A stretch of 64,000 nt of DNA, from contig CAWJMT010000003.1 in NCBI GenBank assembly GCA_963844035.1, forward strand, positions 160,001-224,000. Reading direction: 5' to 3'. The notes beneath the pieces are model-generated. The model had not been told where the DNA came from. It did no database searches and saw only the letters and a program-made list of their open reading frames with translations. Positions 324-60,164 of the stretch are shown here, piece after piece. The DNA comes from an uncultured Gemmatimonadales bacterium (lineage in GTDB: Bacteria; Gemmatimonadota; Gemmatimonadetes; Gemmatimonadales; GWC2-71-9). Position numbers and translations under genes: made by a program. Position 1 is the first letter of the stretch. Each line of letters starts with the position of its first letter.

Positions 324-419
324 CTAGACGGCCAGTCGTATAGACGCATAGACGGGCAGTAGAACATAGAAATGAAGATTCTCCTTCCCGTCTGTGCGGC
401 TGTGCGCCTGTGCGCCTAG
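324..419. repeat. Inverted pair of 4x octamer arrays (TAGACGCA-like / TGCGCCTG-like) in the tRNA spacer
   Basis: tagacggc cagtcgta tagacgca tagacggg (325-356) versus cccgtctg tgcggctg tgcgcctg tgcgccta (387-418). Confidence 0.8.
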
Positions 420-427
420 TTCTTAGG

Positions 428-514
428 GGACAGGTGTCCGAGTGGTTGAAGGAGCCGGTCTCGAAAACCGGTGTGCCCGTAAGGGTACCGTGGGTTCGAA
501 TCCCACCCTGTCCG
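428..514 (+). tRNA. tRNA-Ser (anticodon CGA), CCA not encoded
   Basis: Acceptor GGACAGG/CCTGTCC+G, anticodon arm CCGGT-CTCGAAA-ACCGG, long variable arm, GGTTCGAATCC. Confidence 0.96.
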
Positions 515-574
515 TTCGACAAGATCCCGACGTGAGGAGGAAATACGACTTCCAGTCAGCCCGCCGCTCCAGGC

Positions 575-1436
575 CTGTCGATCACATCGCCGGGAGACTT
601 ACCATCGAGCGAGTTCGGTCTCGCCCTCGGCTACGTCATCGGGCATCATCTGCTCGACATGCAGGACCTGCACTACGGCTATTGGCCGGCCGACCTGCCC
701 GTGGTACCGAAAAATCTCGCCCGGGCCCAGGCGCACTACACCGACCTGTTGCTGTCGCACATCCCACCCGGGGTGAAGACGGTGCTCGACGTCGGCTGCG
801 GTGCGGGGAACACTGCCCGCAAGCTGCTCGAGCGGGGGTACCAGGTGGACTGCGTGTCGCCGAACGGCGTGTCTGACCGGGGTCGCGCGGCAGGTACTGG
901 GAGATCGCGCGACGATTTTCGAGACCCGGTTCCAGGACCTCGAGACCGATCGCCGCTATGACCTGATCCTGTTCAGCGAGAGCCTGCTGTTCATTCCGCT
1001 GGACGCGGCCTTCACTCAGGCGCTGCGGCTGCTCACGCCCGGCGGTCACATCTTGATCACCGATATCTTCCGCGTCCCGGCCGAGGGGACGAGCCCGATC
1101 GGGGGCGGTCACGAGCTGCCGGTGTTTCGAGCCGCCGTGGCCCGCTTCGGGCTCGAGCCGGTGCAGGACGTCGACATGACGGCCGGCATCGCGCCCACGT
1201 TCGATCTGCTCGACCGCATCACCGCGGACGCGATCCAACCGGCCTACCAGATGCTCATGGCCCGGTTCACGGTGCGCAGTCCCTGGCTGATGCGGATCGT
1301 GCGCTGGCAATTCGGGAAAAAGCTCGAGAAAGCCGAGCGGAAGCACTTCAGCGGCCGGCGCAACGGCGCGAACTTCAAGAAGTACAAGGCCTATCGCCTG
1401 CTGCTGTTTCGGCGCCCGGAGGCGCACCCCCTTTAA
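575..1436 (+). CDS. Class I SAM-dependent methyltransferase (frameshift near 872; start uncertain)
   Basis: LHYGYW and VLDVGCGAG motif I in ORF 659..961, continuing as YDLILFSESLL...GGHILITD in ORF 801..1436. Confidence 0.85.
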
Positions 1437-1471
1437 CCCACGTGGACCGCGAGCTAACTTTGAACCCCGAG

Positions 1472-2035
1472 ATGCCTCGGCCAAACCGCAGCACCATCCT
1501 CGACGCCCGCGCCCTGTCGCGGGCGCTTCAGCATATGGCGGCAGCGATCGTGGAACTGGCGCACGGGACCGATGATCTGGTGCTGATCGGGATCCAGCGC
1601 CGGGGCGTGGAGCTCGCCGAGCGCATCGGCAAGCTGATCGAAGCGGACCGGAAGGCCGCGGTCCCTCGCGGAGCCCTCGACATCACGCTGTATCGCGACG
1701 ACCTCGAGACCATCGGTCCGAAACCGGTCATCGGCGAGACCCACCTCCCGGGCGACCTCGCCGGCAAGCATGTCGTCATCGTGGACGACGTCCTGTACAC
1801 CGGCCGCACCGTGCGGGCGGCCCTCGATGAGCTCGCAGATTTCGGTCGTCCCAAGCGCATCTCGCTGGCGGTGCTGATCGATCGGGGCGGGCGCGAGCTG
1901 CCCATTCAGGCCGACGTCGTGGGGAGCGTGGTGCAGACCAACCCCGGCGACCGGGTGGACGTGTTCGTGAACGAGCTCGACGGTCGGGACGAAGTCGAGC
2001 TGATTCGCGCCGTGCCAAAGGAGGTCCCCGCGTGA
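1472..2035 (+). CDS. pyrR: Bifunctional pyr regulator / uracil phosphoribosyltransferase
   Basis: [21 protein letters not shown] motif [25 protein letters not shown]; upstream of pyrB. Confidence 0.95.
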
Positions 2036-2997
2036 CCGTGGGGTTGGGCAAGGACCTGGTCGGGCTCGCGTCCCTGTCGGCCGAGCAGATCGGTCTGATT
2101 CTCGATACTGCCGAGCCGTTCAAGGATGTGTCGGAGCGCCCCATCAAGAAGGTCCCCGCATTGCGGGGCAAGACGATCGTCAACCTGTTCTTCGAAGCCT
2201 CCACCCGAACCCGGATCTCGTTTGAGTTCGCCGAGAAGCGTCTGTCGGCGGACACCGTGAACGTGGCCGCGTCAGGGAGCTCGGTGTCCAAGGGCGAGAC
2301 GCTGGTGGACACGGCGAAAAACCTCGAAGCGATGCGGATCGATATGGTGGTGATGCGCCACTACTCGTCCGGCGCGGCGGAATTCCTTGGCAACCGCATC
2401 CGCTCGAACGTGATCAACGCCGGCGACGGCAAGCACGAGCATCCGACGCAGGCGTTGCTCGACATGCTGACCCTGCGCGACAAGTTCGGCCGCATCGCCG
2501 GGCTCAAGGTGTGCCTCGTCGGGGACGTGCTCCACTCCCGCGTGGCGCGGTCCAACATCTGGGGCCTGACGAAGATGGGCGCGCAGGTGGCGGTGTGCGG
2601 TCCCCGGTCGCTGTTGCCGCGCGGGGTCGAGGAGCTGGGCGTGACGGTGTTCGATCACGTGGAAGAGGCGATCCAGTGGTGCGACGTCCTCAACGTCCTC
2701 CGCCTGCAGCTCGAACGCATGGAGGCGGGGTTCATCCCGTCGCTGCGCGAGTACTACCGGGTGTTCGGCGTCACGCTGGAGCGGCTGGAGAAGGCCCCGA
2801 AGGACATCACCATCATGCATCCGGGACCCATGAACCGTGGCGTGGAGATCGACAGTCGCGTGGCCGACGGGCCGCACAGCGTGATCCTCGATCAGGTGAC
2901 GAACGGTGTCGCTGTCCGGATGGCGGTGCTCTACCTGCTCGCCGGCGGCAAACCCGACCTCGCCGACGCCGCCAGGCGCGGCCCGGGGCCGGACTGA
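2032..2997 (+). CDS. pyrB: Aspartate carbamoyltransferase catalytic subunit
   Basis: [37 protein letters not shown]. Confidence 0.97.
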
Positions 2998-4295: not shown

Positions 4296-4942
4296 AGGCT
4301 CGCGACGTCGCTCGCCGGATGGCGTTGTGCTGCCGGCAGCTGGCGGCGCGGGGATTGATTGCCGGCCAGGACGGGAACCTGTCCGTGCGACTCTCCGCCA
4401 CCCGGGTGCTCGTCACCCCGCGCGGACTCATCAAAGGGCTGCTCACGGCGTCCGACATGGTGGAAGTCGACCTGTCGGGTCGCAAGCTGGGTGGCCGCCG
4501 CAAGCCCACGACTGAATTGGACTTACACCTGCGATTCCTGAGACGTCGCCCCGACGTGGGCGCCGTCGTCCACGCGCACCCGCCCACGGCGACGGGATTT
4601 GCCGTGGCCGGAATGGGCTTTGAAAAATTCGTCCTTCCCGAGATTATCTTGTTATTCGGCCAGGTACCGCTTGTCCCTTATGGGACACCGGGGACTCCGG
4701 AGTTGGGTGATCGGGTGGAGCCCTTCATCGACGGGCACGACGGCCTGCTGCTCGCCAACCACGGCGCGGTGACCGTCGGACCTACGCTGGACGCGGCGTG
4801 GATCCGGATGGAGAGTCTGGAGCACGCGGCGCGCATTCTTTTCACCGCTCGCGCCCTGGGACGGGTGACCGAGCTCACGAACGACGCTGCGGCGCGCCTC
4901 GAAGCGAGCCGCGCGCGGGCACAACGGGAGCCGGATGCCTAA
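4292..4942 (+). CDS. Class II aldolase/adducin family protein
   Basis: GQDGNLSVR, PTTELDLH, VVHAHPP, LLLANHGAVT. Confidence 0.9.
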   Translation: MKARDVARRMALCCRQLAARGLIAGQDGNLSVRLSATRVLVTPRGLIKGLLTASDMVEVDLSGRKLGGRRKPTTELDLHLRFLRRRPDVGAVVHAHPPTATGFAVAGMGFEKFVLPEIILLFGQVPLVPYGTPGTPELGDRVEPFIDGHDGLLLANHGAVTVGPTLDAAWIRMESLEHAARILFTARALGRVTELTNDAAARLEASRARAQREPDA

Positions 4943-5709: not shown

Positions 5710-5712
5710 CGG

Positions 5713-5973: not shown

Positions 5974-5999
5974 GAACGGTCTCCTCGAGTGAAGGCGGA

Positions 6000-6028
6000 A
6001 GCATAGACGGTAACTGCAGTGTGGTCAA
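6000..6028 (-). promoter_or_regulatory. sigma70-type promoter for rpsT
   Basis: Minus strand TTGACC-17 nt-TATGCT. Confidence 0.7.
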
Positions 6029-6040
6029 GGCGGTACAACG

Positions 6041-10362: not shown

Positions 10363-11348
10363 CGACACAAAAGGCGGCCCCGGCCCCGGCTCCGGCTGGC
10401 GACGCGGCGCTCACGCGCACGATCACGCGGGAGGTGGCGAAGCGGGTGGTCGGCCAGGAGGTCATGGTCGAGCGCCTGCTGATCGGCCTGCTGACCGGCG
10501 GGCACGTCCTGCTCGAGGGCGTCCCCGGCCTAGCCAAAACGCTGGCTGTGCGCACCGTGGCGGAGGCGCTCCGGATCTCGTTCTCGAGGATCCAGTTCAC
10601 GCCGGATCTGCTGCCGGCGGACGTGATCGGCACCATGGTCTTCGATCAGCGCTCGCAGGAGTTCTACGCGAAGAAAGGCCCGCTGTTCGCCAACCTCGTG
10701 CTGGCCGACGAAATCAACCGCGCTCCCGCCAAGGTCCAGGCGGCGCTGCTCGAGGCGATGCAGGAGAAGCAGGTGACGCTCGGCGGCGAGACGTTTTTTC
10801 TGGGCGAGCCGTTTCTCGTCCTGGCTACACAGAACCCGATCGAGCAGGAAGGGACGTATCCCCTCCCGGAGGCGCAGCTCGACCGCTTCATGCTCAAGGT
10901 GCGCGTCGGGTATCCCAGTCGCGATGCCGAGAAGGAGATCGTGGCCCGCATGGCGGGCGGACGCCCGATCGAGGTGCAGCGCATCGCCGAAGCGGGGGAC
11001 ATCCTCGCCGCCCGTAGCGCCATCGCCGAGCTCTTTATGGACCAGAAGGTGGTCGACTACATCGTGGATGTGGTGCGCGCCACCCGCGAGCCGCAGGCGG
11101 TCGGACTTCCGGAGTTGAAGCCCCTCATCGCCTTTGGTGCGTCGCCCCGCGCGTCGATCTACCTGGCGCAGGCGTCGCGGGCGCATGCCTACCTGCGCGG
11201 CCGCTCGTACGTGGTGCCGGAGGACGTGAAGGCGATGGCGTTCGATATTCTGCGCCACCGCGTACTGCTCACCTTCGAGGCCGAGGCGGAGGACATGGAC
11301 GCCGACCGCGTCATCGCCAAGATTCTCGAGGCCGTGCGCGTGCCGTGA
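10359..11348 (+). CDS. moxR: MoxR-family AAA+ ATPase
   Basis: LLEGVPGLAKT, RIQFTPDLLPAD, LADEINRAPAKVQ, TQNPIEQEGTYPLPEAQLDRF. Confidence 0.95.
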   Translation: MTTQKAAPAPAPAGDAALTRTITREVAKRVVGQEVMVERLLIGLLTGGHVLLEGVPGLAKTLAVRTVAEALRISFSRIQFTPDLLPADVIGTMVFDQRSQEFYAKKGPLFANLVLADEINRAPAKVQAALLEAMQEKQVTLGGETFFLGEPFLVLATQNPIEQEGTYPLPEAQLDRFMLKVRVGYPSRDAEKEIVARMAGGRPIEVQRIAEAGDILAARSAIAELFMDQKVVDYIVDVVRATREPQAVGLPELKPLIAFGASPRASIYLAQASRAHAYLRGRSYVVPEDVKAMAFDILRHRVLLTFEAEAEDMDADRVIAKILEAVRVP

Positions 11349-12286
11349 AGTACGCGGGAGAAGAACGCCGGCGTGGCCCCGTATCGCCGGCCCGCACCCG
11401 CCGGCGCACCGTCACCCCCGACGTGCTCCGGCAGGTCAAAGGGATCGAGCTTCGCACCCGCACCCTCGTCAACTCCCTGTTCACCGGCGACTACCGCTCG
11501 GTGTTCCGTGGACAGGGCATCGAGTTTGCCGAGGTACGGGAGTACCAGCACGGCGACGACTTCCGCGCCATCGACTGGAACGTATCCGCGCGGATGGGAC
11601 ATCCGTTCGTGAAGACCTACGTCGAAGAGCGCGAGCTCACCCTCCTGTTGCTCGTGGACCAGTCGGGGTCGCTGCACGTCGGCCGTCGCGCCACCAAGGC
11701 GGCGCTCGCCGTCGAGGTGGCGGCCGTGCTCGCGCTGGCCTCGGCCCGCCACAACGACCGGGTCGGCGCGCTGATGTTCTCGGACACGGTGGAATTCGTG
11801 GTGCGCCCCGCCAAAGGGCGGCCGCACGCGCTCCGGGTCATCCGCGACTTGCTCGCCTTTTCGCCGCGTGGCCGCGGGACCAACCTGGCGGAGGCCCTGC
11901 GCTACGCCACGCGCCTCTTGCGGCACCGCTCGATCGTGGCCGTGTTGTCGGACTTCCGAGCCGAGGGATGGGAGGAGCCGCTCGCGCGGCTGGCCGCGCG
12001 CCATGATGTGGTGGCGGTGACGGTGGACGACGAGCGCGAGCTCGACCTGCCGGACGCCGGCTGGGTGGACCTCCAGGATGCCGAGACGGGCGGCCGTGTG
12101 CTGCTCGATTCGAGTCACGGACCCACTCGCACGCGGTTCCGCGTCGCTGCCGAACGCCAGCTGCAGGAGCGCACGCGCAAGCTGATCCAGGCGGGCGTGG
12201 ATCGCGTGGCGCTCCAGACGCACGTGCCGTACGCCGTTCCCCTGCGCCGGGCGTTCGCCGAGCGGGCCCGCAGGCGCAAGCGATGA
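11345..12286 (+). CDS. DUF58 domain protein
   Basis: GQGIEFAEVREYQHGDDFRAIDWNVSAR, VKTYVEERE, DQSGS. Confidence 0.93.
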   Translation: MKYAGEERRRGPVSPARTRRRTVTPDVLRQVKGIELRTRTLVNSLFTGDYRSVFRGQGIEFAEVREYQHGDDFRAIDWNVSARMGHPFVKTYVEERELTLLLLVDQSGSLHVGRRATKAALAVEVAAVLALASARHNDRVGALMFSDTVEFVVRPAKGRPHALRVIRDLLAFSPRGRGTNLAEALRYATRLLRHRSIVAVLSDFRAEGWEEPLARLAARHDVVAVTVDDERELDLPDAGWVDLQDAETGGRVLLDSSHGPTRTRFRVAAERQLQERTRKLIQAGVDRVALQTHVPYAVPLRRAFAERARRRKR

Positions 12287-13144
12287 GGGCCGCGCGGCGC
12301 CGCGCGGCGTGGGGCGCCGCGCTGAGCGTCGTGGCATTTGCCGCGTTCCCCGGACCGGCGGCCGGACAATGGACCGTCGATCCACCCCGCCCGACGGTGG
12401 GTGACACGGTGTGGTTGGCGCGCGAAGTGACGCTACCCGCCGGATGGCGTGTGCGACCCGGGAAGCTCGACGAGGGCGACGCGATCGGATCGCTGGGCGA
12501 TGCGGCGGTGCTGTGGACACCCGGCGGGTGGCTGATTCGGTACCCCGTGGTCGCCTGGACTACCGGCGCGCATACGATCGTCCTGCCTCCTGTGTGGCGC
12601 CTGGCGCCCGACGGCCGCGCGGACTCCCTCCCGGGCGGTGCGGCTCGGTTCGACGTGCGGAGTGTGATCCCCGACAGCGTGACGCAGCCGCAGCCGCGCG
12701 GGGCCATCGCTCCGTTGCGGCCCAGCCGTCGGCACCCCGGCGTACTGTTGCTCGCGATCGCGGCCTCGGCGGCGCTGCTTGCGGGAGCGATGGCGTGGCG
12801 TCGCCGCCCAGGGCGCGCTCCCGTCCCGCCACCTCAGGTTCCACTAGAACGTGAAGTGCCCGATGCGCGCTGGCTCGCTGCCGGCGAGCCCAAAGCCGTG
12901 GCGGCCCGCGCCGCGCGCCACCTGCGAACGGCGATCGCGCGTGCGCACCCCGATGCGTTCGTGGCCCTCAGCACGACCGAGTGTCTGGCCGCGCTCAAGC
13001 ACACAGATTCCCGATATCCCCCTCCGCCAGCTCACCGAGGTCCTGACGCAGCTCGAGCGGGTCGGGTTCGCGTCGGCCCAGGGGGCGGAGGCGGCGGTGC
13101 TGGCCGAGCGCGCCCGGGCGCTGGCACGGGAGCTCGCGCCGTGA
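12283..13144 (+). CDS. Exported membrane-anchored protein of Bat cluster (frameshift near 13010)
   Basis: Signal peptide, beta-rich domain, TM helix followed by WRRR; lies between DUF58 and VWA genes with overlapping start/stop. Confidence 0.7.
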
Positions 13145-14122
13145 GTTTCGCCCGGCCGTTTCTTCTCTTGTTGCTGGCGGCAATCCCCGCGTGGTGGTGG
13201 CTGCGCGCGCGCCGCCTCGCGCGACTGTCCGGGACGACCATGGGAGATTTACGGCCGGCGGCCGGGGCCGGGGATCGCTTGTGGGTCGCGCGCCTCCCGC
13301 TGATGCTGCGCAGCGTCTGCCTGGCGGCGTGGATCATCGCGGCGGCGGGCCTGCGGCTGGGCGCGGCGCGGGCGGAAGTGCGCACCGAGGGGATTTCGAT
13401 CGTGCTCAGTGTGGACGTGTCCAGCAGCATGCTCGCGGAGGACTTCGCGCCGTCCAACCGCATCGACGTGGCAAAACAGACGGCGATCGAGTTCGTGCGG
13501 GCGCGCAACTCGGATCGCATCGGGCGTGGTGGCGTTCGCGGCGCAGGCTCTCACCCAGGTCCCGATCACGACCGACTATCCGGTTCTCGAGGCCGCGCTG
13601 CAGGGTCTCCGGATCGGGATGCTCGAGGACGGCACGGCGATCGGAACGGGGATTGCGACCGCGGCGAATCGGCTGCGCCACGCGCCGGGGAAGACCAAGG
13701 TCCTGATTCTGCTGACCGACGGCGTGAACAACCGCGGCATCGTCGACCCGCGCACGGCCGCGCAGGCGGCGGCCGCGTTCGGCATCCGCATCTATGCGAT
13801 CGGTGTCGGCACGCGGGGTGAAGCGCCGGTGCCGACCGGGGTGGGGCCGGAGGGGATGCGGTATCAGTCGCTCCCCGTCGAGATCGACGAGCCGCTGTTG
13901 ACGGAGATCGCGACGATGACCGGAGGGCGCTACTTCCGCGCCACCGACTCGCAGTCGCTGAAGCAGATCTTCGGGGAGATCGACCGGCTCGAGAAGAGCA
14001 CCGTCCAGCGCGTTATCTACCGTCGGTTCGACGAGGCGTTTCGCTGGCCGCTGGGTCTCGGGCTGCTGGTGCTCGCTCTCGAGATCGTGCTGTCGGCGAC
14101 CTTCGCGGTGCGGGTGCCGTGA
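13141..14122 (+). CDS. batA: BatA-like VWA domain protein (frameshift near 13522)
   Basis: SFARP N-term TM, DVSSSM MIDAS, GTAIG, ILLTDG, IYAIGVG, TGGRYFRA. Confidence 0.88.
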
Positions 14123-15780
14123 TCACCTTCGACGCACCCTTCGTGCTGTGGCTGGCCCCGGTGGTCGCGGTGGCCGTGTGGCTGGGCGCGGCGTGGGCGC
14201 GGCGCGTGCGACTGCGGCGCGCAGCGCTCTGGTCGGAGCAGACGGCGGCCCTGGCGAGGAACGCGGGCCGGGCGGGCCCGAGCATGGTCGCCGCCGCGGC
14301 GTGCCTCGCCACGGTCGCGCTGGCGGGGCCTCGCTGGGGGCACGAGGCGGTCGTCACCGAAACGCGCGGCCTCAACCTGGCGATCGCGATCGACATCTCC
14401 CGCTCGATGCTCGCGGAGGATGCGAGCCCGAACCGGTTGGGGCGCGCGGCGCGGGAAGCGCGGCGCCTGGTTCAGGACCTGGACGGTGATCGGCTCGGGT
14501 TTGGTGGCGTTCGCCGGGTCGAGCTATATCCTGTCGCCGCTGTCGGTCGACGGATCGGCGCTGCTGCTGTACCTGGACGCCCTGGACCCCGACATCGCCT
14601 CGCAGGGAGGAACCGGCCTGGCTGCGGCGCTGCGACAGGGCGGCGAGCTGCTCCGGGCGGGCACCGAGCTCGCCGATCGCGTGCTCGTGGTGTTTACCGA
14701 CGGCGAGGGGCATGACTCGCTCCCCGGCGTGGTGGCGCAGGCGCGGCGGCTGAACACGGCCGGCGTCCGGCTGATTCTCGTGGCGGAAGGCGGGCGCGCA
14801 CCGGTGCGGATTCCCGTGCGGGATGAAGCCAAAGTGCTGCGAGGATACCAGAAGGACGAATCGGGGAATGAGATCGAGACGAGCCGCCGCGACGATATCT
14901 TAGGCGCCATCGCCGACGCGGCGCAGGGCGCGCAGGTCGCCGCCGACCTTCCCGATCAGGCGGGCGCCGTGCGCGACCTCGTGGCCTCCTACAAGCGCGC
15001 GCGTGCCAGTGAGACGCAGACTGAGCGGGGGCGGCCGCGGGCCTGGGTGCTGCTGCTCGGCGCGGTCGGCTTGCTCATCGCCCAGGCGGCGACGCGCCGG
15101 ACCGCGGCGCTGCTCGGTCTCGCTCTGCTCGTGACGGCTGTCCCCGCGCGGGCCCAGGATTCCACGCGACCGCGCAGCGCGGCCCAGCGTGCGTGGGACC
15201 GCGGCCAGATCGATCGCGCGCGCCGGGCGTACGCGGCGGAGCTTGCGGCGCACCAACAGGACGACGTGGCCTGGTACAACGCCGGCACCGCGGCACTCGC
15301 GGCCGGTGATCGTGAAGGGGCGCGTCAGAGTCTGAGCCGGGCCGCGGCGTCGCTCGTTCCCGACCTGCGGTATCGCGCCCTCTACAACCTGGGCGTGCTC
15401 GCGCTGCGCGAGGCGGACATAGACAGCGTGCATCGCGACGCGCACTTGGCCGAAGCGGAGCGCGCCTACCGCGAAGCGTTGTTGCTGCAGCCCGAGCAGG
15501 TGACCGGCCAAGTGGAATCTGGAGCTCGCGGTGCGGCGGCGCAGTGGCGGTGGAGGCGGCCAATCACCCTCGGGCGGTGGCGGCGGGGGTGGCGGGGTCG
15601 GCGGCGGCGGCGGTGAGTCACCGCGCGGCGGCGGCTCGAGCGGAGCCCCAGGGCGGCGGTCTCAACAAGTCGCAGGCGGAGCAGATTCTCAAGTCGATTG
15701 GACAGGAGGAGCTGCGCACGCGACGCGATCGCACGGGGCGCACCCGGGTGGCCGGCGAGCCGGGAGTGAAGGACTGGTGA
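14119..15780 (+). CDS. BatB-like VWA fused to BatC-like TPR region (frameshifts near 14499, 15505, 15650)
   Basis: LAGPRWG, DISRSM, VFTDGE, then AWYNAG / ALYNLG TPRs, Gly-rich linker, QAEQILKSIGQEE...KDW end. Confidence 0.82.
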
Positions 15781-18114
15781 TCTTCGCGCTCGTTTTGGTC
15801 GCCTTGGCGCAGGGGGGACCGCCGCTCGTGACGGCCAGCGTGGACCGCACGCGGCTCACGGTCGGGGAGGCGCTGGTCCTCACCGTGCGCACGCGCACGC
15901 GCGCGGCGCAGCCGCTCACCTTCACGCTGCCGCCACTCGCGGGGTTTGCCATCGTCGCGACGCACGAAGTGACCGACGTCTCCGTCGGCTCGGGCGCGCG
16001 GCGACATGCTGCGAACCACGGTACGCCAGCTCACGCTGCGCGCGGACCGCGCCGGCCAGCTGGTGATCGGGGCGGTTCGGGCGCAGCAGGGGCGCGCCGC
16101 CGCGGCGACCGCTCCGATTCAGGTGACCGTGGATTCCGCGGTCGGCCGCACGGCGTCGCTCAGCCCGCCGGCGCGGGCGCTGCTCGATGCCGCAGTTCCG
16201 CCGGCGCGCGACGATCAGGTGGCGCTCAGCGTGGTCGTGCGCGCGGAGAGCGTGGTGGTGGGACGGCAGGTCGACATTCTCCTGGCGGCGTGGTTCCCGC
16301 GCGAGCTGCGGTTGCGGCTCCGAGGCCATCCGCAGCTGACCCTGCCGACGCCGCCCGGCGTGTGGGCGTACCCTGAGCAGGTGCCGGACGAATCCGTGGC
16401 ATCGCGGCGGGTGGGCAGCCGGTGGATGGACCTGTACGTCACGCATCGGATCGTCTTTCCCCTCGAGCCCGGCCGGCTGACGATCCCGCCGGCCACCGTG
16501 TCGTACGACGTGCCGGTGTCGTTCTCGATCTTCAGCCGCGAGGAGCGCTATTCGCTGCGCAGCGATTCCACGACGCTCATCGTCCTGCCGCTGCCGGCGG
16601 AGGGGCGTGCCGGCGGACGACCAGCGACTCGTAGCCCAGGACCTGGCGCTGACACTCTCGCTGACCCCGGCGGTGACTCGCGCCGACGAGCCCGTGACCG
16701 CGGTCGCCACCGTGGCCGGTATCGGCAACGTGCCGCTGTGGCCCGAGCCCGCGCTGCAGTGGCCCCGAGGGTTTCGCGACGTACGCCGCGGAGACGGACG
16801 TGCCGGCTGGAACCGCAGCGCGGGCTGGTGGCGGGTACGAAGACGTTCAGCTACCTCGTCGTTGCCGACTCGCCGGGGACCTTCGTGCTTCCCGAGCTGC
16901 GCTATCCGTACTACAACGTCACGACCGCCGGTTACGTCGGTGGCACGGGCTGCGCCGCAGACGCTCAGCGTCCTGGCTACGCCCGAGCCGCGGCCGGCCC
17001 GCGCGTTACCGCCGCTGTTGCGGCGCGAAGGAGAATCCGGGCCCGACCGGTTGGTGCGCGAGGTCGGCCTCTGGGGTTGGCTCGCGCTGCTGCTGTGCCC
17101 CCCGTTCCTCGCGTGGTGGGTCCGGCGCCGCGCAGCGGCCACGAGCGACGCGGACGCGAAACGGCCGACGCTCACCACGCTGGGGCGTCTCGAGCGCGAC
17201 TTTCACACGCTGCTCGCGAGCTACGTCTCGGACCGGGCGGCGCGCGATGGGGACGGGTTGGCGCGGGCCCTGCGCGCTGCGGGCATTGACAGCGCCATCT
17301 CCGATCACGTCATGCGGCTGCGCGACCGCGTGCGCGCGGCACGCTACGGTCCGCTCGGCTTGGGGGACGCGGAAGAGCTGGCCGCCGAGCTGGAGAAGGT
17401 CCTGCGCGTGCTCGGGGCGGATCCCGGCGGTGCGCGCCGGCGGCGCGTAATGGCCGTGCTGGTGTGCGCGGTGTTGCTGGCTCCGCGGGTTGGCGCAGCA
17501 CAGACGGCCGCTCCCGAGGCACTGTATGAGGCGGGGGCGCTGCGCGCCGCGGCTGACTCGTTTGCGGCGCGGGCCGCCGCGCACCCGTTCGTCGCGGCCC
17601 ACTGGTACAACCTCGGCGCGACGCTGTATCGCGCGGGGGCCGATGGCAAGGCCGTAGCGGCCTGGACCCGGGCCGCCCGTCTCGCGCCGCGCGACCGTGT
17701 GGTGTTGCGTGCCCGCGAGTTTCTCTCACCTCCCGACGCCGCCAGCGATCCCCTCCTCGCGGTCGGACCGGCGACGCCTGGTGAATGGGTCCTGGCGGTG
17801 GCCGTCGCCTGGGCCGCGTTGTGGGCGGCCGTGATCGCCCGGCGCCGCCGCGTCGTCCTGATCACACTGGCGGGCTTCACGGCGATCGCGATCGTGTTCG
17901 GCGCGGTGGAGGCGTCCCGCCGCGGGCGGCCGGTCGTGATCGTCATCGCCCCGGGCACCGCGGTGCGGGTGGCCCCATACGGAAGCGCGAATCCCAACGC
18001 GACGGTGGACGCGGGTGCCGCGCTGCTTGCGGTGGGGCGCTACGGCCGCTGGATCGAGGTCCGGCGCCGCGACGGCGTCCACGGCTGGGTCCTCGACTCG
18101 GACGTGGTGCGACT

Positions 18115-18118
<4 letters not shown>
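15777..18118 (+). CDS. BatD-like protein fused to BatE-like TPR+SH3 region (several frameshifts 16000-16940)
   Basis: VTASVDRTRLTVGE, FPLEPGRLTIPPA, GIGNV, then HWYNLG TPR and C-terminal WIEVRRRDGVHGWV SH3-like. Confidence 0.8.
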
Positions 18119-19803
<1,685 letters not shown>

Positions 19804-19880
19804 AATGCGGAATGGGGAATGCGGAATGCGGAATGGGTGGTGTGGTTTCATTCCGCACTCCGCAATCCGCATTCCGCACT
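19804..19880. repeat. Inverted pair of heptamer arrays (AATGCGG / CATTCCG) filling the mutL-miaA gap
   Basis: aatgcgg aatgggg aatgcgg aatgcgg aatg - 13 nt - cattccg cactccg caatccg cattccg cact. Confidence 0.92.
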
Positions 19881-19886
19881 CTGATC

Positions 19887-20859
19887 GTGTCAGACCTGCC
19901 GCTCGTCCCGGTCCTTGTCGGCCCGACAGGGGTGGGGAAGACGGCTGTCGCCGTTGCGCTCGCCGCACTGCGCCCGATCGGGGTGATCTCCGCCGATGCG
20001 CGCCAGGTGTATCGCCGCCTCGACATCGGCACCGCCAAGCCCTCGCCCGCGGTCCAGGCCGCCGTGCCGCACTACGGGATCGACGTGGTCGATCCGGGCG
20101 AGCGCTACAGCGCGGGCCGGTTTGCCCGAGACGCCGCCGGATGGCTCGACCGGGTGCGGGCGGCGGGACGCGAGCCCGTCGTGGTGGGTGGAACCGGCTT
20201 CTACGTGCGCGCGTTGGCGGACGGGTTGTTTCAGGAGCCGCCCCTCGATCCGGCGCGGCGCGAGTCGTTGCGCGCCTGGACGGCCCGGATGCCGGCCGCG
20301 CGGCTGGCGCATTGGGCGGCGCGCCTCGACCGCGGATTCGCGGGAGGCGGACGGCAGCGCGGCGCCCGCGCCATCGAGGTGGCCCTGTTGACGGGGCGGG
20401 CGCTCTCCTGGTGGCAGCGCGAGGCGCGCGAGACCGGCGCAATGCGCCCATGGTACATTCACCTGACGCTGCCGCGCGACGTGCTGCAGCGACGGATCGC
20501 CGCACGGGTGGACCAGATGCTCGCCGCCGGGCTCGTGGCTGAGGTGCGCGGATTGCTCGACAGCGGCCTGGCCGCCGACAGCGCCGGGCCTCGATGGGGT
20601 GGGGTACCGGGAAGTGGTCGCGATGCTGGGTGGCTCGTTGCCGCCCGCCGGCCTGCGGGATGCGATCCTCATCGCTACACGGCGCTACGCCAAGCGGCAG
20701 GACACGTGGTTTCGAAATCAACTGCCAAAGCGCAATCAGCCATCAGCCGTCAGCGGTCAGGAGGACGTGTGGATGCTCAACGCCACCGAGAGCCCAGCAG
20801 CGTTGGCGGCGACCATTTTCGAACGCTGGCAAGCCATCACGCTGATCTCTGATGGCTGA
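19887..20859 (+). CDS. miaA: tRNA dimethylallyltransferase (frameshift near 20585)
   Basis: GPTGVGKT, ISADARQVYRRLDIGTAKP, VVGGTGFY; shifted frame GYREV, TRRYAKRQDTWFR. Confidence 0.93.
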
Positions 20860-20875
20860 AAGCTGACGGCTGACG
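20734..20875. repeat. Inverted heptamer arrays (ATCAGCC-like / GCTGACG-like) bracketing the miaA 3' end
   Basis: aatcagc catcagc cgtcagc ggtcagg (20734-20761) and gctgatc tctgatg gctgaaa gctgacg gctgacg (20841-20875). Confidence 0.85.
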
Positions 20876-20880
20876 ACCTT

Positions 20881-22005
20881 GTGAGAATCGGCATCACCTG
20901 CTATCCGACCTACGGCGGTTCCGGCGCCGTGGCCACCGAGCTGGGGCTCGAGCTGGCGCGGCGCGGGCACGACGTGCATTTCATCGCCTACGCCAGCCCG
21001 TTCCGGCTGCGGGGGTTCTCGGAGCGGGTGACGTTCCACGAAGTGGTGACCGCCGAGTATCCCCTGTTCGAACACTCACCCTATGCGCTGGCGCTCGCCG
21101 TCAAACAGCATGAGGTGGCGCTGCGCGAGCGGCTCGAGCTGATGCACGTGCACTACGCGATCCCGCACGCCGCGACCGCCTGGCTCGCCAAGCAGATGCT
21201 CAAGAACGAGCGTGATCTGAAAGTCGTGACCACGCTGCATGGCACCGACATCACGCTCGTCGGTCAGGACCCGTCGTTCTATACCATTACGAAGTTCTCG
21301 ATCGAGCAATCGGATGCGGTGACTGCTGTCTCGTCCTACCTGCGCGACGAGACGTATCGGGCCTTTGGCTGCATCGGGTGTGATGTGCGCGTCATCCCGA
21401 ACTTCGTCTCGCCGCTCGAGTACCACACGTCCACCGGCACGTCGTTCCGCGGCATTCTCGCCCCGGCCGGTCACAAGATCCTGGTGCACGTCTCGAACTT
21501 CCGGCCGGTGAAACGCATCATCGACGTGATCCGCATCTTCGCCGGGGTACGCCGCGCGATGCCGGCCACGCTGGTGCTGGTGGGCGACGGTCCCGATCGG
21601 GACGCGGCTGAGCAGGAAGCCGACCGGCTCGCCCTCGGCAGGGATGTTCGCTTCCTCGGCAAGGTGGACCAGGTGGCCGAGCTGCTGCGCGGGAGCGATC
21701 TGTTCCTGCTGCCCTCTGAGACCGAGTCGTTCGGCCTGGCGGCACTCGAGGCGATGGCCTGCGGGGTGCCGGTGATCGCGACCGCGGTCGGCGGCCTGCC
21801 CGAGGTCGTGGTGAGTGGTGAAACCGGGTTTCTCGCCCCCGTTGGAGCCGTGGACGCGATGGTGGCCGAGGCGACCGCGATCCTCGCGGATCCGGAACGC
21901 CACGCGCGCATGCGCGCGGCCGCTGCGGACCGCGCGCTCACCTTCGCCACCGAGCGCATCGTGCCGCAGTACGAAGCGCTGTATGAGGAGGTGTTGCGTG
22001 GGTAA
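20881..22005 (+). CDS. bshA: N-acetyl-alpha-D-glucosaminyl L-malate synthase (GT4)
   Basis: MRIGITCYPTYGGSGAVATELG, HVHYAIPHA, TTLHGTDITLVG, HVSNFRPVKR, ESFGLAALEAM. Confidence 0.92.
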   Translation: MRIGITCYPTYGGSGAVATELGLELARRGHDVHFIAYASPFRLRGFSERVTFHEVVTAEYPLFEHSPYALALAVKQHEVALRERLELMHVHYAIPHAATAWLAKQMLKNERDLKVVTTLHGTDITLVGQDPSFYTITKFSIEQSDAVTAVSSYLRDETYRAFGCIGCDVRVIPNFVSPLEYHTSTGTSFRGILAPAGHKILVHVSNFRPVKRIIDVIRIFAGVRRAMPATLVLVGDGPDRDAAEQEADRLALGRDVRFLGKVDQVAELLRGSDLFLLPSETESFGLAALEAMACGVPVIATAVGGLPEVVVSGETGFLAPVGAVDAMVAEATAILADPERHARMRAAAADRALTFATERIVPQYEALYEEVLRG

Positions 22006-30225: not shown

Positions 30226-30228
30226 GAC

Positions 30229-30264
30229 TAGACGCATAGACGCACAGACAGACGCACAGACAGG
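30229..30264 (+). repeat. Octamer array (TAGACGCA/CAGACGCA) after groEL stop
   Basis: tagacgca tagacgca caga cagacgca cagacagg; same unit as in the tRNA spacer. Confidence 0.8.
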
Positions 30265-30272
30265 TTGAGGCG

Positions 30273-30305
30273 CGCCCCGGGATTGCTCCCGGGGCGCCTT
30301 CTTTT
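30273..30305 (+). terminator. Rho-independent terminator of groESL
   Basis: CGCCCCGGGA-TTGC-TCCCGGGGCG stem followed by CCTTCTTTT. Confidence 0.85.
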
Positions 30306-42144: not shown

Positions 42145-44371
42145 CACTCGCGCTCAATCCCGCCCAGGAGACCGCCGTGCGCCACGGGGAGGGACCACTC
42201 CTCGTGCTCGCCGGCGCCGGTTCGGGGAAGACCCGTGTGCTCACGGCGCGCATCGCGCACCTCATCAAGGAGCGCGGCGTACCCCCCGAGCGGGTATTCG
42301 CGGTCACGTTCACCAACAAAGCAGCGGGCGAGATGCGCACCCGGGTGGCCACGCTGTTGGGCGCCGACCCGCGAGGTCTGTGGATCGGCACCTTCCACTC
42401 GCTCTCGGCGCGCGTTGCTGCGGCGTGAGGCCACCCTGCTGGGCTTCGGGTCCAACTTCACGATCTACGATGCAGACGATTCCGAGTCGCTCACCAAACG
42501 CCTGTTGGAGCAGCGCGGGCTGTCGCCCAAGGACAACCCGCCGCGCGCGGTGCACTCGCTGATTTCGGCCGCCAAGAATCGCATGATCGGGCCGGAGGAA
42601 TTCGCCGCCACGGCGGACGGGCCGCTGGCCCGCGCCGCCGCCGAGGTGTACGCCCTGCTCGGGCCGGCGTTGAAGCAGGCGAACGCGATGGACTTCGACG
42701 ACCTGCTGGCGTTGCCGCTCACGTTGTTCGCGACGGTCCCCGAGCGCCTGGCCTACTGGCAGCGCCGGTTCGAGCACGTGCTGGTGGACGAGTTCCAGGA
42801 CACCAACGCCGCACAGTATCAGCTGGTCAAGCTGCTGGCGGGGACTCATCACAACCTCACGGTGGTCGGCGACGACGACCAGGCGATCTACGGCTGGCGC
42901 GGTGCGGACCCGCGCCACATGCTCACCTTCCAGCGGGATTTCGTGGGCACGACGGTCGTCAAGCTGGAGCACAACTACCGCTCGACGCAGATGATCCTGG
43001 ACGCGGCCAACGGCGTCATTGCCGAGAACGCTGCGCGGCTCGGCAAGACGCTGTTTACCACGCACCCCGGCGGCGAGCGGGTGGTCGTGCTCACCACCGC
43101 TGACGAGCGGGACGAAGCCCAATGGCTCGTGCAGGAATTCGCCCGGAGTGGCGGCGGAGACGGACATTCCGTACGAGGGGATGGCGTTTCTGTATCGGAC
43201 CAACGCGCAGTCCCGCCCGCTTGGAAGAAGCGCTGCGCCACCGCGGCATCCCCTACCGCCTCATCGGAGCGGTCAGCTTCTACGAGCGGCGCGAGGTCAA
43301 GGATCTGCTCGCGTATCTGCGGCTGTTGGTCAATCCGGCGGACGACGAGGCGTTCCTGCGGGTGGTGAATGTCCCGCGGCGAGGGATCGGCGATACGTCG
43401 CTCGACTTGCTGGTGCGGACCGCGACCCAGTGGCGGATGCCACTGGCGGCGGCGGCCGCGGTGGCCGATCGGATCCCGGAGCTACGCCCCAACCTGCGCG
43501 AGGCGCTGCGGGCGGTGGCGGCACTGCTCGCGGGGCTGCGCGAGCATTGGGGCCAGGCCGATCCGGCCACGGTCCTGGAGAAGGTGATCGCGGCCACGGG
43601 CTACGAGCGCTATCTCGCCGATGAGGGGGCGGAGGGGGTGGACCGGCTGGAGAACGTGCAGGAGCTGATTGCGGGCGCGGCGGAGTGGGCCGAGGTCGCG
43701 GTGGCGGGGAACGGCGCCGGAGGGGACGAGCCCGCGACCCTGCTGGAGCGGTACCTGACGCAGGTGGCGCTGGTGACGCCGGCCGACGGCGGGGCGGACG
43801 CGCCGGGCGGAGTGTCCTGATGACCGTCCACATGGCCAAGGGGCTCGAGTGGTCGCTGGTGGCGTTGACCGGTCTCGAGGACGGGCTATTCCCGCTGAGT
43901 CGCTCGGTGGGCGTCCCGGGTGGGGTGGAGGAGGAACGCCGGTTATGCTACGTGGGCCTCACGCGCGCGCGCGAAAAATTGTATCTCTCATGGGCGCGAA
44001 CCCGCTACCGGCACGGCCGGCTGGAGCTGTCGGAGCCGTCGCGCTTTCTCGAATCCGTTCCGGCCGGCGTGATCGAGGAAAAGGGCACGAGTGTGCGGTG
44101 GGATCGCCCGATGCGCGGGCGGCCATCCGCGGCGCGCGCTGGCGACGTGAGTTGGGACGAAGAGCCGTCAGATGAGCCGTCACAGGATGCGCCCCGCTAC
44201 GCGAACGGAGAGCGGGTGCGCCATCGGAAGTTCGGTGCCGGAGTGGTTCGTGCCGTCGCGGGATCGGGGCGGGCGCTCAAGGTGACCGTGGAGTTCGACG
44301 CCCCCGACATCGGAACCAAACAGCTGCTCGTGGCCTATGCCGGCCTCGAGCGGGAGTGGGAGAGTGCATGA
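42141..44371 (+). CDS. pcrA: UvrD/PcrA helicase (frameshifts near 42412, 43142, 43220, 43812)
   Basis: [64 protein letters not shown]. Confidence 0.93.
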
Positions 44372-50388: not shown

Positions 50389-50393
50389 TTGCC

Positions 50394-51690: not shown

Positions 51691-53007
51691 ATGTCCTCGA
51701 CGTTTTTGGTGTCCGGCGGACGAGCGCTCAAGGGAACGGTGCGGCTCTCGGGCAACAAGAACGCCGCCCTCCCGATTCTCGCGGCCACACTGCTGGCCGA
51801 CGGCCCCTGCCGCATCGACAACGTGCCCCGGATTCGCGACGTGCTCACGATGATCGAGCTGCTCGAGCACCTCGGCGCCGTCGTGCGGTGGACCGGCCCC
51901 AACACGGTGGAAGTCGACGCATCGCGCGCGGAGCCGCGCGAGATCGATCCCGCCCTCTCCGCCCGGATCCGCGCGTCCATTCTGCTCGCGGGCCCGATGC
52001 TGGCGCGCTTCGGTCGGGTCACCTTGCCGCCGCCCGGCGGCGACGTGATCGGGCGGCGGCGCGTGGACACGCATTTCCTCGCCCTCGAGCAGCTCGGCGC
52101 CGAGATCACGGTCGGGAACGCGTACACGCTCGAGGGCAAGCTCACCGGGGCCGACATCTTTCTCGACGAGCCCAGCGTCACCGCCACCGAAAACGCCCTG
52201 ATGGCGGCCGTCGCCGCGCGTGGCACGACCGTGTTGCGCAACGCCGCGTGCGAGCCGCACGTCCAGGATCTGGCGCAGTTTCTCGTGGGCTGCGGGGCGC
52301 GCATCGACGGCATCGGCACGAACACGGTGACCGTGGACGGTGGGGCGCCGCTCGGCGCCGCTGCGTACACGATCGGCCCCGACTACATCGAGATCGGCTC
52401 GTTCATCGGGCTCGCCGCGGTCACCAACGGCGCCATCACCATGGAGGGCGTGCGGGCGAGCGACCTGCGCGCCACCCTGCTCGCGTTCGAGCGCCTGGGC
52501 GTGCATCCGCGGCTCGACGGAACCCAGCTCATCGTGGACGCCGATCAGGAGCGCCGCATCCGCACGGATCTCGGCGGTCACGTTCCCAAGCTCGAGGACG
52601 GGCCCTGGCCGGCGTTCCCGGCCGATCTCATGTCCATCGCCATCGTGGTCGCCACGCAGTGCGATGGATTGCTGCTCGTGTTCGAGAAGATGTTCGAATC
52701 CCGGCTGTTCTTCGTCGACAAGCTTATCGGGATGGGGGCGCGCGTCGTGTTGTGCGATCCGCACCGCGCGGTGATCGCCGGTCCCTCGCCGCTGCGCGGT
52801 CAGGTGGTCGAGAGTCCCGACATCCGTGCCGGTATGGGCATGCTCCTCGCCGCCCTCGCGGCGCAGGGAGACTCCGTGATCCACAACATCGGGCAGATCG
52901 AGCGTGGCTACGAGCGCATCGACGAGCGGTTGCGGGCGCTGGGGGCGTTGATCGAACGGCGAGATGATGGGCCGGAAGGGAAGGCGGGCAGGCGGGCCAG
53001 CGACTAG
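51691..53007 (+). CDS. murA: UDP-N-acetylglucosamine 1-carboxyvinyltransferase
   Basis: SGNKNAALPILAA, RASILL, PGGDVIGRR, SVTATEN, PWPAFPAD, SPDIRAG, IERGYE. Confidence 0.96.
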   Translation: MSSTFLVSGGRALKGTVRLSGNKNAALPILAATLLADGPCRIDNVPRIRDVLTMIELLEHLGAVVRWTGPNTVEVDASRAEPREIDPALSARIRASILLAGPMLARFGRVTLPPPGGDVIGRRRVDTHFLALEQLGAEITVGNAYTLEGKLTGADIFLDEPSVTATENALMAAVAARGTTVLRNAACEPHVQDLAQFLVGCGARIDGIGTNTVTVDGGAPLGAAAYTIGPDYIEIGSFIGLAAVTNGAITMEGVRASDLRATLLAFERLGVHPRLDGTQLIVDADQERRIRTDLGGHVPKLEDGPWPAFPADLMSIAIVVATQCDGLLLVFEKMFESRLFFVDKLIGMGARVVLCDPHRAVIAGPSPLRGQVVESPDIRAGMGMLLAALAAQGDSVIHNIGQIERGYERIDERLRALGALIERRDDGPEGKAGRRASD

Positions 53008-53054
53008 CCATGCACCAGACCCACCCGCCCGCCCGCCTCCCCGCCTTCCCGTCT
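52974..53054. repeat. Inverted octamer arrays (AGGCGGGC / GCCCGCCT) spanning the murA stop and pgeF start
   Basis: ggaaggga aggcgggc aggcgggc cagcgact versus acccgccc gcccgcct ccccgcct tcccgtct. Confidence 0.75.
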
Positions 53055-54342: not shown

Positions 54343-54370
54343 CGATGAACAGCCTTTTCCGGATGGTCCG

Positions 54371-58638: not shown

Positions 58639-58641
58639 GCC

Positions 58642-58923
58642 GTGATCGTCGGGCTCATGACCTGGGAGCTGCATATCGAGGGGTGCCAGTCCTTGAAGGA
58701 TAAGCGGCACGTGCTGAAGAGCTTGAAGGACCGGCTTCACAACAAGTTCAATGTGTCCGCCGCGGAGACCGATCACCACGACCTGTGGCAACGCGCGGAG
58801 TTGAGTGTGTGCGTGGTGAGCACCGACCGGCAGCACGCCGAGAGCGTGTTGCGCGAGGCGGATCGGATGGTGGCGGGGGATGCGGCGGCGCGGGTGATCG
58901 ACACCAGCACGAGCTTTCTCTAG
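58642..58923 (+). CDS. DUF503 (YlxP) family protein
   Basis: SLKDKR, KFNVSAAE, DLWQRA. Confidence 0.9.
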   Translation: MIVGLMTWELHIEGCQSLKDKRHVLKSLKDRLHNKFNVSAAETDHHDLWQRAELSVCVVSTDRQHAESVLREADRMVAGDAAARVIDTSTSFL

Positions 58924-58926
58924 CGC

Positions 58927-59286
58927 ATGCCCCGGCGTCCCACGCATCGCCCCGAGCGGCTTGGCGAGCTGATCCGGCAGACGGTCGCGGCGTTCCTCAC
59001 CGGGAACGTGCGCGACCCACGGATCGGCTTCGTCACCGTGACCAGTGTCGACGTCTCGGGCGACCTGGGGCACGCGCGGATTCGGGTGAGCATCATGGGC
59101 ACCGAGGAGGAGCGCGCGCGGAGCCTCGAGGGACTGGGGAGCGCCGCCCGGTTCCTCCGCGCACAGCTGGCGCGCGAGCTGACGCTGCGCACCACGCCTG
59201 AGCTGCACTTCGAGCTCGACCGCGGAATCGAACACGCAGCGCGCATCGACGACGTGCTCCGGAAGCTGCGGGAGGACGGCGGCTGA
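58927..59286 (+). CDS. rbfA: Ribosome-binding factor A
   Basis: VRDPRIGFVTVT, SGDL, LRTTPELHF. Confidence 0.95.
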   Translation: MPRRPTHRPERLGELIRQTVAAFLTGNVRDPRIGFVTVTSVDVSGDLGHARIRVSIMGTEEERARSLEGLGSAARFLRAQLARELTLRTTPELHFELDRGIEHAARIDDVLRKLREDGG

Positions 59287-59318
59287 CGTCCGGAGAGAGC
59301 GGGGGCGAGGGCGGGGTC

Positions 59319-60164
59319 GTGCTCGTGGCGAAACCGGCAGGGCCCACGTCCCACGATGCGGTGGACATCGTCCGGCGGGCGTTGGGGGTCACCCGGGTTG
59401 GCCACCTCGGCACCCTGGATCCGTTCGCCGCGGGGCTGCTCGTGCTGGTGGTCGGCCGCGCGACGCGGCTGGCGCCGTTCGCCGCGGAATGGACCAAGGA
59501 CTACGAGGGTGTGATTCGGTTGGGCACTGTGACGACCACCGACGACGGAACAGGCGAGGTCGTCGGGACATCGGAGGAGTGGCGGACCCTCGATCGCAGC
59601 CGGATCGCAGCGGTATTCGCAGAGTTTCGTGGAGCGTATGATCAACGGCCGCCGGCGTTCTCGGCGGTGAAGGTCGACGGAGAGCGGGCCTACCGGCGGG
59701 CCCGCCGTGGAGAGCCGGTGGTGCTCGAGGCGCGGCGCGTGGAGGTGCGCGAGTTCACCATGACGGCCTGCGCGCCGCCCGACGTATCGTTCCGGGCCGC
59801 CGTCACGGCCGGCACGTATCTGCGCAGCCTGGCGCGCGACGTGGGCGAGCGACTCGGGTGCGGCGCACATCTCAGGGCGCTCACGCGTACGCGGGTGGGT
59901 CCCTTCGGGCTGGAGGGTGCGACGGCTCCCGAGGCGGTGACCGCCGCTGCGGTGCGCGATCCCGCACTGCTGGTCGCGGACCTGCCGCGCCGCGATCTGG
60001 ATGCGGAAGAAGGGGTGCTCGTGTCGCACGGTCGCTCGGTCGCCGCGGGATCGGGGACGGGGGACGAGGGACGGGTGGCGCTGTTCTCGCACGGACACCT
60101 GGTCGCGGTCGCTGAGCGGGTCGGCGACGTGCTCAAGCCGCGTGTGGTCCTGGCGGACGCATGA
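59319..60164 (+). CDS. truB: tRNA pseudouridine(55) synthase
   Basis: KPAGPTSHD, GHLGTLDPFAAG, PPAFSAVK, GTYLRSLARD. Confidence 0.95.
   Translation: MLVAKPAGPTSHDAVDIVRRALGVTRVGHLGTLDPFAAGLLVLVVGRATRLAPFAAEWTKDYEGVIRLGTVTTTDDGTGEVVGTSEEWRTLDRSRIAAVFAEFRGAYDQRPPAFSAVKVDGERAYRRARRGEPVVLEARRVEVREFTMTACAPPDVSFRAAVTAGTYLRSLARDVGERLGCGAHLRALTRTRVGPFGLEGATAPEAVTAAAVRDPALLVADLPRRDLDAEEGVLVSHGRSVAAGSGTGDEGRVALFSHGHLVAVAERVGDVLKPRVVLADA
60047..60074 (+). repeat. 4x heptamer array (GGGACGG) inside truB C-terminal domain
   Basis: gggatcg gggacgg gggacga gggacgg. Confidence 0.72.

Follow-up and report, generated by a model that had tools for sequence, protein, structure and literature searches.

Paired heptamer and octamer repeat arms in a Gemmatimonadales genome and their association with a PF05635 four-helix-bundle gene

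Inverted repeat doublets at gene junctions are characteristic of repetitive extragenic palindromes (REPs; as hairpin-forming doublets, REPINs) with their REP-associated tyrosine transposases (RAYTs) and of MITEs (miniature inverted-repeat transposable elements), in which the autonomous gene is flanked by the same repeats. Cyanobacterial short tandemly repeated repetitive (STRR) heptamers occur as several families per genome, in arrays of few units. This report concerns short tandem arrays of period 7 and 8 in a 64,000-nt stretch of DNA from an uncultured Gemmatimonadales bacterium, hereafter the window (positions 160001-224000 of contig C3 in assembly G000; 3.47 Mb, 67% GC, 84% complete), together with a gene of family PF05635/TIGR02436 that lies between arms of the same kind elsewhere in the assembly. 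Published systems are described here and below as given in the sections of each source that were consulted. For the Xanthomonas GGGAATC and Nostoc GGGGA(C/T)T heptamers, a preference for four units has been explained by G-quadruplex (G4) formation and the function left open (Rehm et al., 2015, PMC4692102); a Calothrix STRR report is cited in the same paper. Intervening sequences (IVS) of 23S rRNA genes may carry an open reading frame (ORF) for S23p, a PF05635 protein, and a horizontal, selfish distribution has been proposed for these ORF-bearing forms (PMC4990558). The family has also been noted in cas loci, with repeats going unmentioned in the sections consulted (PMC3936711). In the complex of a diversity-generating retroelement (DGR), all five protomers of Avd contact one stem-loop, whose bases are flipped into crevices between protomers (10.1101/2023.10.23.563531).

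The window contains seven arrays, namely four inward-facing pairs and three solo arms, all recovered where an earlier, sequence-only reading had reported at least that many. A period scan of G000 identified 134 period-7 and 133 period-8 arrays, compared with 1-6 in twelve null genomes (five synonymous-codon shuffles, five codon shuffles and two order-5 Markov genomes), and 4-7 arrays each for periods 5, 10, 11 and 13. Since the period-7 and period-8 counts far exceed those of the null genomes, chance is excluded as their source, and the genome-wide excess over shuffled sequence that had been anticipated is borne out. G000 contains long duplicate stretches of 77-99% identity (C3/C35, C1/C17, C12/C23, C13/C32, C1/C9/C30 and others) and is a mixture of related organisms despite its stated contamination of 3%, so that the genome-wide counts pool more than one organism; the window's own contig, C3, carries all nine of the unit families described below.

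Profiles of nine unit families detected 339 arms in G000 (18 and 28 in two nulls). Among these arms, 94 close neighbours (≤200 nt) were found, of which 88 face inward, one faces outward and five lie in tandem, confirming the suspected excess of inverted pairing. Both arms belong to one unit family in 83 of the 88 inward pairs, compared with 16% by chance, and the five mixed-family pairs are plausible intermediates of unit replacement. The 83 same-family pairs comprise 39 in co-directional gene context, 17 intragenic, seven convergent, four divergent and 16 unassigned, all approximate counts that depend on a rough gene caller (76% coding). An AT-rich inverted pair of 8-mers at C20:13738-13859, with the unit AAATTGTT, is unlike the nine GC-rich families and possibly represents foreign DNA.

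As the sequence-only reading had proposed, these differing units share a single architecture, and each of the nine consensuses has a register in which its last two bases are a purine and then G. Of 337 arms, 200-208 have exactly four full units and 83-101 have three, and arms of five units number only 15-28, with very short arms being under-detected. A G precedes the first unit in 92% of 291 arms, compared with 33% by chance, and arm matches stop directly after the last G, in which they differ from simulated random-phase ends. Given the four-unit count and these G-fixed ends, an arm consists of five G posts separated by four spacers. Polarity is strict: read 5' to 3', the purine/G-rich strand leads into the loop. 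A first impression that the outer arm end varies failed the controlled end-phase test.

Neither the units of an arm nor the two arms of a pair appear to be copies of one another. Adjacent units are identical at a frequency of 0.26, compared with 0.25 after within-arm shuffling and 0.22 under independent sampling, and units inside an arm are thus nearly independent draws from the spectrum of their family. Partner arms in the 83 pairs are as similar (0.869) as random arms of the same family (0.870). A simple form of the templated-repeat origin offered by the sequence-only reading is not supported by these values: fold-back copying was rejected because partners are no more alike than random same-family arms, and a master-copy origin was rejected because identical three-unit strings do not exceed independent sampling in eight of nine families.

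G000 encodes seven PF05635/TIGR02436 four-helix-bundle genes at five distinct sites, three of the genes being copies of one site. All seven sit between protein-coding genes and none in 23S rRNA; inverted arms are clear at six and degenerate at one, with units from five of the nine families. Of the cargo that the sequence-only reading had imagined between arms, four-helix-bundle genes are therefore present in G000 and in relatives, but nuclease cargo was not found. Between same-family arms 200-2500 nt apart in G000, the only cargo besides the PF05635 genes was parts of host genes. Three of the seven genes are frameshifted, through assembly error or real decay. The cassette proteins pass the curated PF05635/TIGR02436 profile cut-off and have a four-helix fold. 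Their predicted fold matches Xcc0516 (PDB 2GSC; TM 0.92, five chains) and more weakly Avd (PDB 4DWL; TM 0.77, 17% identity), and the five-chain structures 2GSC and 2RLD suggest that the cassette protein is likely a homopentamer.

The association of gene and arms extends well beyond G000. In the host's family, 103 of 115 cassette loci (six from G000; the others are the top 109 by score among some 210 matches in 47 genomes) are flanked by inverted arms with periods of 7 to 11, compared with nine in a direct-orientation control. Among the best 80 relatives of one subfamily, drawn from many phyla, arms were found at 72 of the 75 loci that could be positioned (control 11) and again peak at four units (56/112). 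Viral cassette loci, some of them near-duplicates, have arms in 24 of 33 cases (control 6). Furthermore, arm period clusters on the protein tree, with 13 changes compared with 40.9 after shuffling (100 proteins, quick tree). Arm periods of 9, 10 and 11 nt occur in cassettes L094, L095, L102, L112, L113, L126, L132, L133, L137 and L144, most of which fall in the octamer-associated protein group. The cassette site at G000 C30:5190-5760 is also present in L035, L037, L087, L092, L103, L106 and L108, so that at least eight genomes have it filled; a G-ACG core is retained in its units amid drift elsewhere, and the gene downstream is one which we take, from its sequence, to be mnmG-like.

Array abundance also tracks the gene. 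Over 60 genomes of the host's family, array counts, obtained with a period-7 GAC pattern and its reversed form as a second detector, correlate with the number of PF05635 genes (Spearman 0.57), and more than five array matches occur in 37 of 47 gene-bearing but in only three of 13 gene-less genomes; p values across relatives overstate significance here and below, as relatives share ancestry. In the congener G063 (100% complete) a PF05635 gene was not found, and this genome has no GGGA-type array matches, compared with 32-87 in four congeners, and two octamer matches, compared with 9-26. The linker and tail of its MiaA are still lengthened and the repeats are gone, a pattern that reads as arm decay after loss of the gene. 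Heptamer arrays without a PF05635 match were seen in G006, G025 and G049, where missing assembly, recent loss or another reader protein may be involved.

Orthologous sites in relatives differ both in the presence of arms and in their units, in agreement with a prediction of the sequence-only reading. At the end of miaA (60 loci, 55 readable), the left-hand repeats are inserted in frame behind WFR(H/N)QL, those on the right fall at the stop codon, and about 27 conserved host codons separate the two arms. One fully supported clade had 19 members examined, and in 17 of these a single unit makes up both arms, the exceptions being G058 (weak right arm) and G063 (none). The unit itself differs by species (CCATCAG, GGATGCG, GGAAGCG, GGACGAG, GTGTCAG, ACGTCAG, TCGTCCG and others), and unit class, scored by eye as one of two ahead of tree construction, changed at least three times on supported branches and six times on the best tree, a single origin being rejected (p-AU 3e-6). 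In seven of 17 genomes the miaA-site unit matches a cassette of the same genome (mean 11.9 vs 8.4 permuted, p 0.0003). Matched pairs with five different units, one of them of period 9, occupy the murA-pgeF junction in five genomes; full matched pairs were found in the mutL linker of six relatives and a full pair in truB of one relative, and at the mutL-miaA junction 50 of the 59 loci that could be read are without arms. Similar exchanges occur between duplicated contigs of G000. Both arms are swapped around a homologous loop in C12:1052 vs C23:48867 and between near-identical flanks in C3:12145 vs C35:283195, and elsewhere a pair corresponds to a single unit or to a solo arm.

Cassettes and gene-less pairs can alternate at one site. 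By manual reading, 23 of 98 armed cassettes of relatives mapped to 12 junctions of G000 (11 by script binning), of which three are filled, two are empty pairs, one has a partial arm and six are bare; empty pairs can thus be cassette sites, and many cassette sites are unarmed in G000. One junction filled in G060 is an empty pair in G000 (C1:3786). Against a background of 154 of 2737 junctions, only one unfilled mapped junction passes the same automated threshold.

On balance, we regard the arrays as probable gene-less footprints of a selfish cassette, whose PF05635/TIGR02436 product, a predicted pentamer, would read the five-post arms and drive their rewriting. This reading draws on arm anatomy, the arms at the gene, the distribution of period on the protein tree, the tracking of arrays with the gene, the concerted swaps and the lack of mirror copying. 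A word read by a protein is proposed because each arm has five posts, because units are family-specific, degenerate and not copied, and because arrays depend on the gene; binding, movement and rewriting by the protein are steps that we infer. The homopentamer would bind one G post per subunit and be specific for its own family of units, probably in single-stranded form or as an extruded hairpin, much as the structurally related Avd pentamer grips flipped-out bases between its protomers. Host repair or recombination might then act on the bound arms by extension, conversion or recombination, yielding new arms, matched pairs and the occasional gain or loss of the gene between them. Selection would leave arms at gene junctions and in flexible linkers, where reading frame and translation signals survive; the gene would travel between arm pairs, and once it is lost the arms would decay.

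Several observations weigh against this proposal. Arrays persist in three of the 13 gene-less genomes, and a cognate cassette is missing from the G000 assembly for four of nine families (GGAMGRG, AATGCGG, CCRTCAG and GCGGTCRG), including those of the window's miaA and mutL-miaA pairs. The miaA-site unit lacks a match to an own-genome cassette in ten of 17 genomes, G000 included, and the by-eye scoring of its two classes likewise tempers the count of changes. Of nine junctions where a relative has the cassette and G000 does not, six are without arms. In addition, the cassette encodes no recognised enzyme, and neither a reverse transcriptase (PF00078) nor a GxxExxY nuclease was found in the 84% complete G000 assembly.

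A broader proposal, which we advance tentatively and with less confidence, is that of widespread protein-programmed repeat-writing, in which each pentamer might read a five-post DNA or RNA word via a small residue-to-base code and direct a host enzyme to write, match and replace word pairs that flank short segments of any kind, the pentamer's own gene and host coding DNA among them. Of all residue positions, the one following NIAEG tells most about which base comes after the post (H with G in 20/25, Q with T in 24/27), as judged after 44 of 194 cassettes had been dropped for ambiguous register; this pattern also speaks for the cassette reading above. Two points count against such a code: phylogenetic independence is lacking (only 2-4 pairs are supported, with a median sign-test p of 1), and co-variation is expected anyway because the arms are co-inherited with the gene. 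Within the host's family alone, the code is weak and register-dependent. If true, repeat-writing would account for the bacterial heptamer excess, for the four-unit rule, for the repeats of STRR type and those of Xanthomonas, and for how ORF-bearing rRNA intervening sequences arose, and the pentamer would represent a reprogrammable nucleic-acid-binding ring. The heptamer excess and the four-unit rule are described as unresolved in PMC4692102, as is the function of the S23p/PF05635 family in PMC4990558; the present data tie the three together and offer natural gene-less controls. The concerted swap of both arms around a coding segment of an essential gene lies outside transposon, REP and slippage models.

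The features of the window are collected in Table 1. They neighbour or lie within two tRNA-Ser genes, mutL, miaA, bshA, groEL, murA, pgeF and truB (the pgeF match is below the family cut-off), and reading frames continue through all coding arms, in keeping with the earlier assignment of the arrays to gene junctions or frame-preserving coding linkers. The pairs lie at mRNA junctions, in coding DNA and in a tRNA spacer, without any ORF inside. The loop of the pair at 20732/20841 is no spacer but host coding DNA comprising the last ~27 codons of miaA; the loop of the murA/pgeF pair contains both the stop and the start codon. The solo arm at 19212 is probably half of the pair that is complete in six relatives. 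An Rfam scan of the window matched two tRNAs only, so no known RNA motif covers the arms. A hairpin resembling an intrinsic terminator was observed downstream of groEL (30272-30297), and a two-unit partial match to a ACGCTAAG-like family lies in coding DNA of the secD region (62085-62103), below threshold and possibly by chance.

Table 1. Repeat arms and loops of the window (positions within the window) and one cassette gene of G000.
Feature	Position	Strand	Context
Left arm, 8-mer family ACGCAYAG	325..354	+	starts 7 nt past tRNA-Ser(GGA) 231-317
Right inverted arm, family ACGCAYAG	389..418	-	ends 9 nt ahead of tRNA-Ser(CGA) 428-514
Solo right arm, 7-mer family GTGTCAG	19212..19241	-	in-frame in MutL linker (TPDPRHLTP)
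Left arm, 7-mer family AATGCGG	19800..19835	+	abuts mutL stop (mutL 18133-19803)
Right arm of AATGCGG pair	19849..19883	-	just 5' of miaA start; 13-nt loop
Left arm, 7-mer family CCRTCAG	20732..20760	+	in-frame insertion, MiaA C-terminal linker (NQPSAVSGQ)
Loop of CCRTCAG pair	20761..20840	+	conserved host coding DNA (VW.LDAT...ERW segment of MiaA), with homologues in relatives both with and without arms
Right arm of CCRTCAG pair	20841..20877	-	overlaps miaA stop (20852), abuts bshA start (20881)
Solo left arm, family ACGCAYAG	30226..30263	+	between groEL stop (30225) and terminator-like hairpin
Left arm, 8-mer family GCGGGMRG	52973..52997	+	in-frame in MurA C-terminal extension (murA 51691-53007)
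Right arm of GCGGGMRG pair	53020..53054	-	in-frame in predicted PgeF N-terminus (ORF from 53010)
Solo left arm, 7-mer family GGAMGRG	60047..60075	+	in-frame in TruB loop (GSGTGDEGR)
Cassette gene of G000	C27:31490-31876		unit GCGGGAAG

Among the alternatives, the one that survives best, though we consider it unlikely, is that the arms serve the host as RNA elements: matched arms would form mRNA stems that act in RNase III processing or in stability, as in the rRNA IVS, the protein would be an RNA chaperone or regulator, selection would maintain pairing and slippage would turn the units over. The four window pairs fold well (z of -6.15 for 325/389, -7.11 for 19800/19849, -2.25 for 20732/20841 and -4.00 for 52973/53020), 25 of 47 junction pairs start -10 to +14 nt from a stop codon, and solo arms carry the purine strand on the sense strand in 94 vs 43 cases; moreover, the 28-bp stem of the Coxiella IVS is cut by RNase III (PMC4990558). 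However, partner arms show none of the compensatory mirroring that selected pairing would leave, and G-U wobble is not biased to the transcribed strand, either in G000 (29 sense vs 60 antisense) or in 129 cassettes (p 0.40), so that the RNA processing or stability hairpins suggested by the sequence-only reading gain no support from wobble or covariation. Stems inside the coding DNA of miaA, mutL and truB would, furthermore, lead to cutting of essential mRNAs, and G063 manages without arms. Separately, in co-directional same-family pairs of G000, the antisense strand is the one with more G-T wobble (20 vs 35 pairs, p ~0.01), mainly in two families.

A polymerase guided by the pentamer could alternatively extend both 3' ends de novo by about four units, at a break or where two nicks are staggered; once joined, these ends would leave arms head to head, with a short spacer or a host segment kept between them. 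We hold this to be quite improbable. It would account for the strict polarity (88 vs 1), for partner arms that are independent and units that are nearly so, and for the lack of target-site duplication, and the protein shares its fold with Avd, the partner of a reverse transcriptase (PMC6182149). Yet G000 yielded no reverse transcriptase, the outer arm end is phase-fixed too, which is easier to reconcile with a binding footprint than with variable priming, and reuse of the same sites requires a targeting rule.

Less probable still, and largely refuted, is the reading that a transposase moves the arms in trans as elements of MITE or REPIN type, the four-helix-bundle gene being carried along as a passenger. 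Terminal inverted arms, the filled and empty forms of the junction shared by G060 and G000, and the Y1 transposase genes of G000 are points in its favour. Nevertheless, a target-site duplication is absent, as the longest direct repeats outside the 83 pairs match the permuted distribution; loops are not shared (one 13-nt match among 55) and can be orthologous host coding DNA, as in miaA. The arrays are thus not copies of one MITE, as the sequence-only reading had already argued. No arm lies within 600 nt of four Y1 loci in G000, and G064 (98% complete) has 73 array matches without a Y1 match.

Least credible of all are slippage-born simple repeats kept for G4 or hairpin structure without a dedicated protein, for which the four-unit preference and the G4 folding of Xanthomonas GGGAATC repeats, with slippage proposed for the heptamer excess (PMC4692102), would speak, but four G3 tracts occur in only 121 of 339 arms, all from two of nine families, three families (52 arms) have the same layout without even G2 tracts, adjacent units are hardly more often identical than after shuffling, arm ends are phase-fixed, and the association with the gene and the G063 result are left unexplained.

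Searches of public sequencing data returned 20 matching runs, none covering more than 0.30 of the query words and all consisting of contigs, and four public DNA runs compared with window positions 18900-21200 contained fragments of relatives, with no usable polymorphism or RNA ends. Several housekeeping genes are broken into pieces in the rough gene calls, through assembly error or real decay; these and the frameshifted four-helix-bundle genes were noted across 11345-18118, 42235-44371 and 61120-63756 of the window and C1:101000-105300, C27:104682-104943 and C37:130338-130604 of G000. No literature linking the PF05635 gene to tandem arms was found in a search that left subscription papers mostly outside and included no supplements.

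The feature is real and fits no known element class, and its mechanism we infer in part. Like REP/REPIN-RAYT systems and MITEs, by their usual definitions, the arrays form inverted pairs at gene junctions, with a gene flanked by the same repeats. Unlike them, the flanked gene is not a transposase, and target-site duplications and a common internal sequence are lacking; unlike REP palindromes, the units are tandem 7-11-mers. The likeness to cyanobacterial STRR, drawn from their description, lies in several heptamer families per genome and arrays of few units, and G000 differs in its equally large octamer class. The repeat layout is already described in Xanthomonas, without a link to a protein in the sections consulted (PMC4692102): the repeats of Rehm et al. 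(2015) share the four-unit preference, convergent inverted pairs (70 in Xcc) and a G-rich strand placed on the sense strand after stops and on the antisense strand before starts. They comprise one unit per genome and are, as reported, generally not linked to mobile elements, whereas nine period-7/8 families coexist in G000, several of which cannot form G4, and the arms are tied to a four-helix-bundle cassette. As in 23S rRNA IVS with S23p (PMC4990558), a PF05635 ORF lies between terminal inverted repeats in the cassettes of G000 and its relatives, and the 28 bp of the Coxiella stem equal the length of four heptamers. In contrast to rRNA IVS, cassettes and gene-less pairs of G000 occupy mRNA junctions, coding linkers and a tRNA spacer rather than 23S rRNA, their arms are tandem arrays, and hundreds of arms are gene-less. 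With the Avd of DGRs (PDB 4DWL; PMC6182149) the cassette protein shares the fold and, as predicted, a pentameric barrel, but the cassette genes are accompanied by no reverse transcriptase, template or variable region. The arrays thus fail the defining tests of MITEs, REP/RAYT, G4-forming simple sequence repeats, DGRs and rRNA IVS, and in layout they resemble IVS and REPINs.

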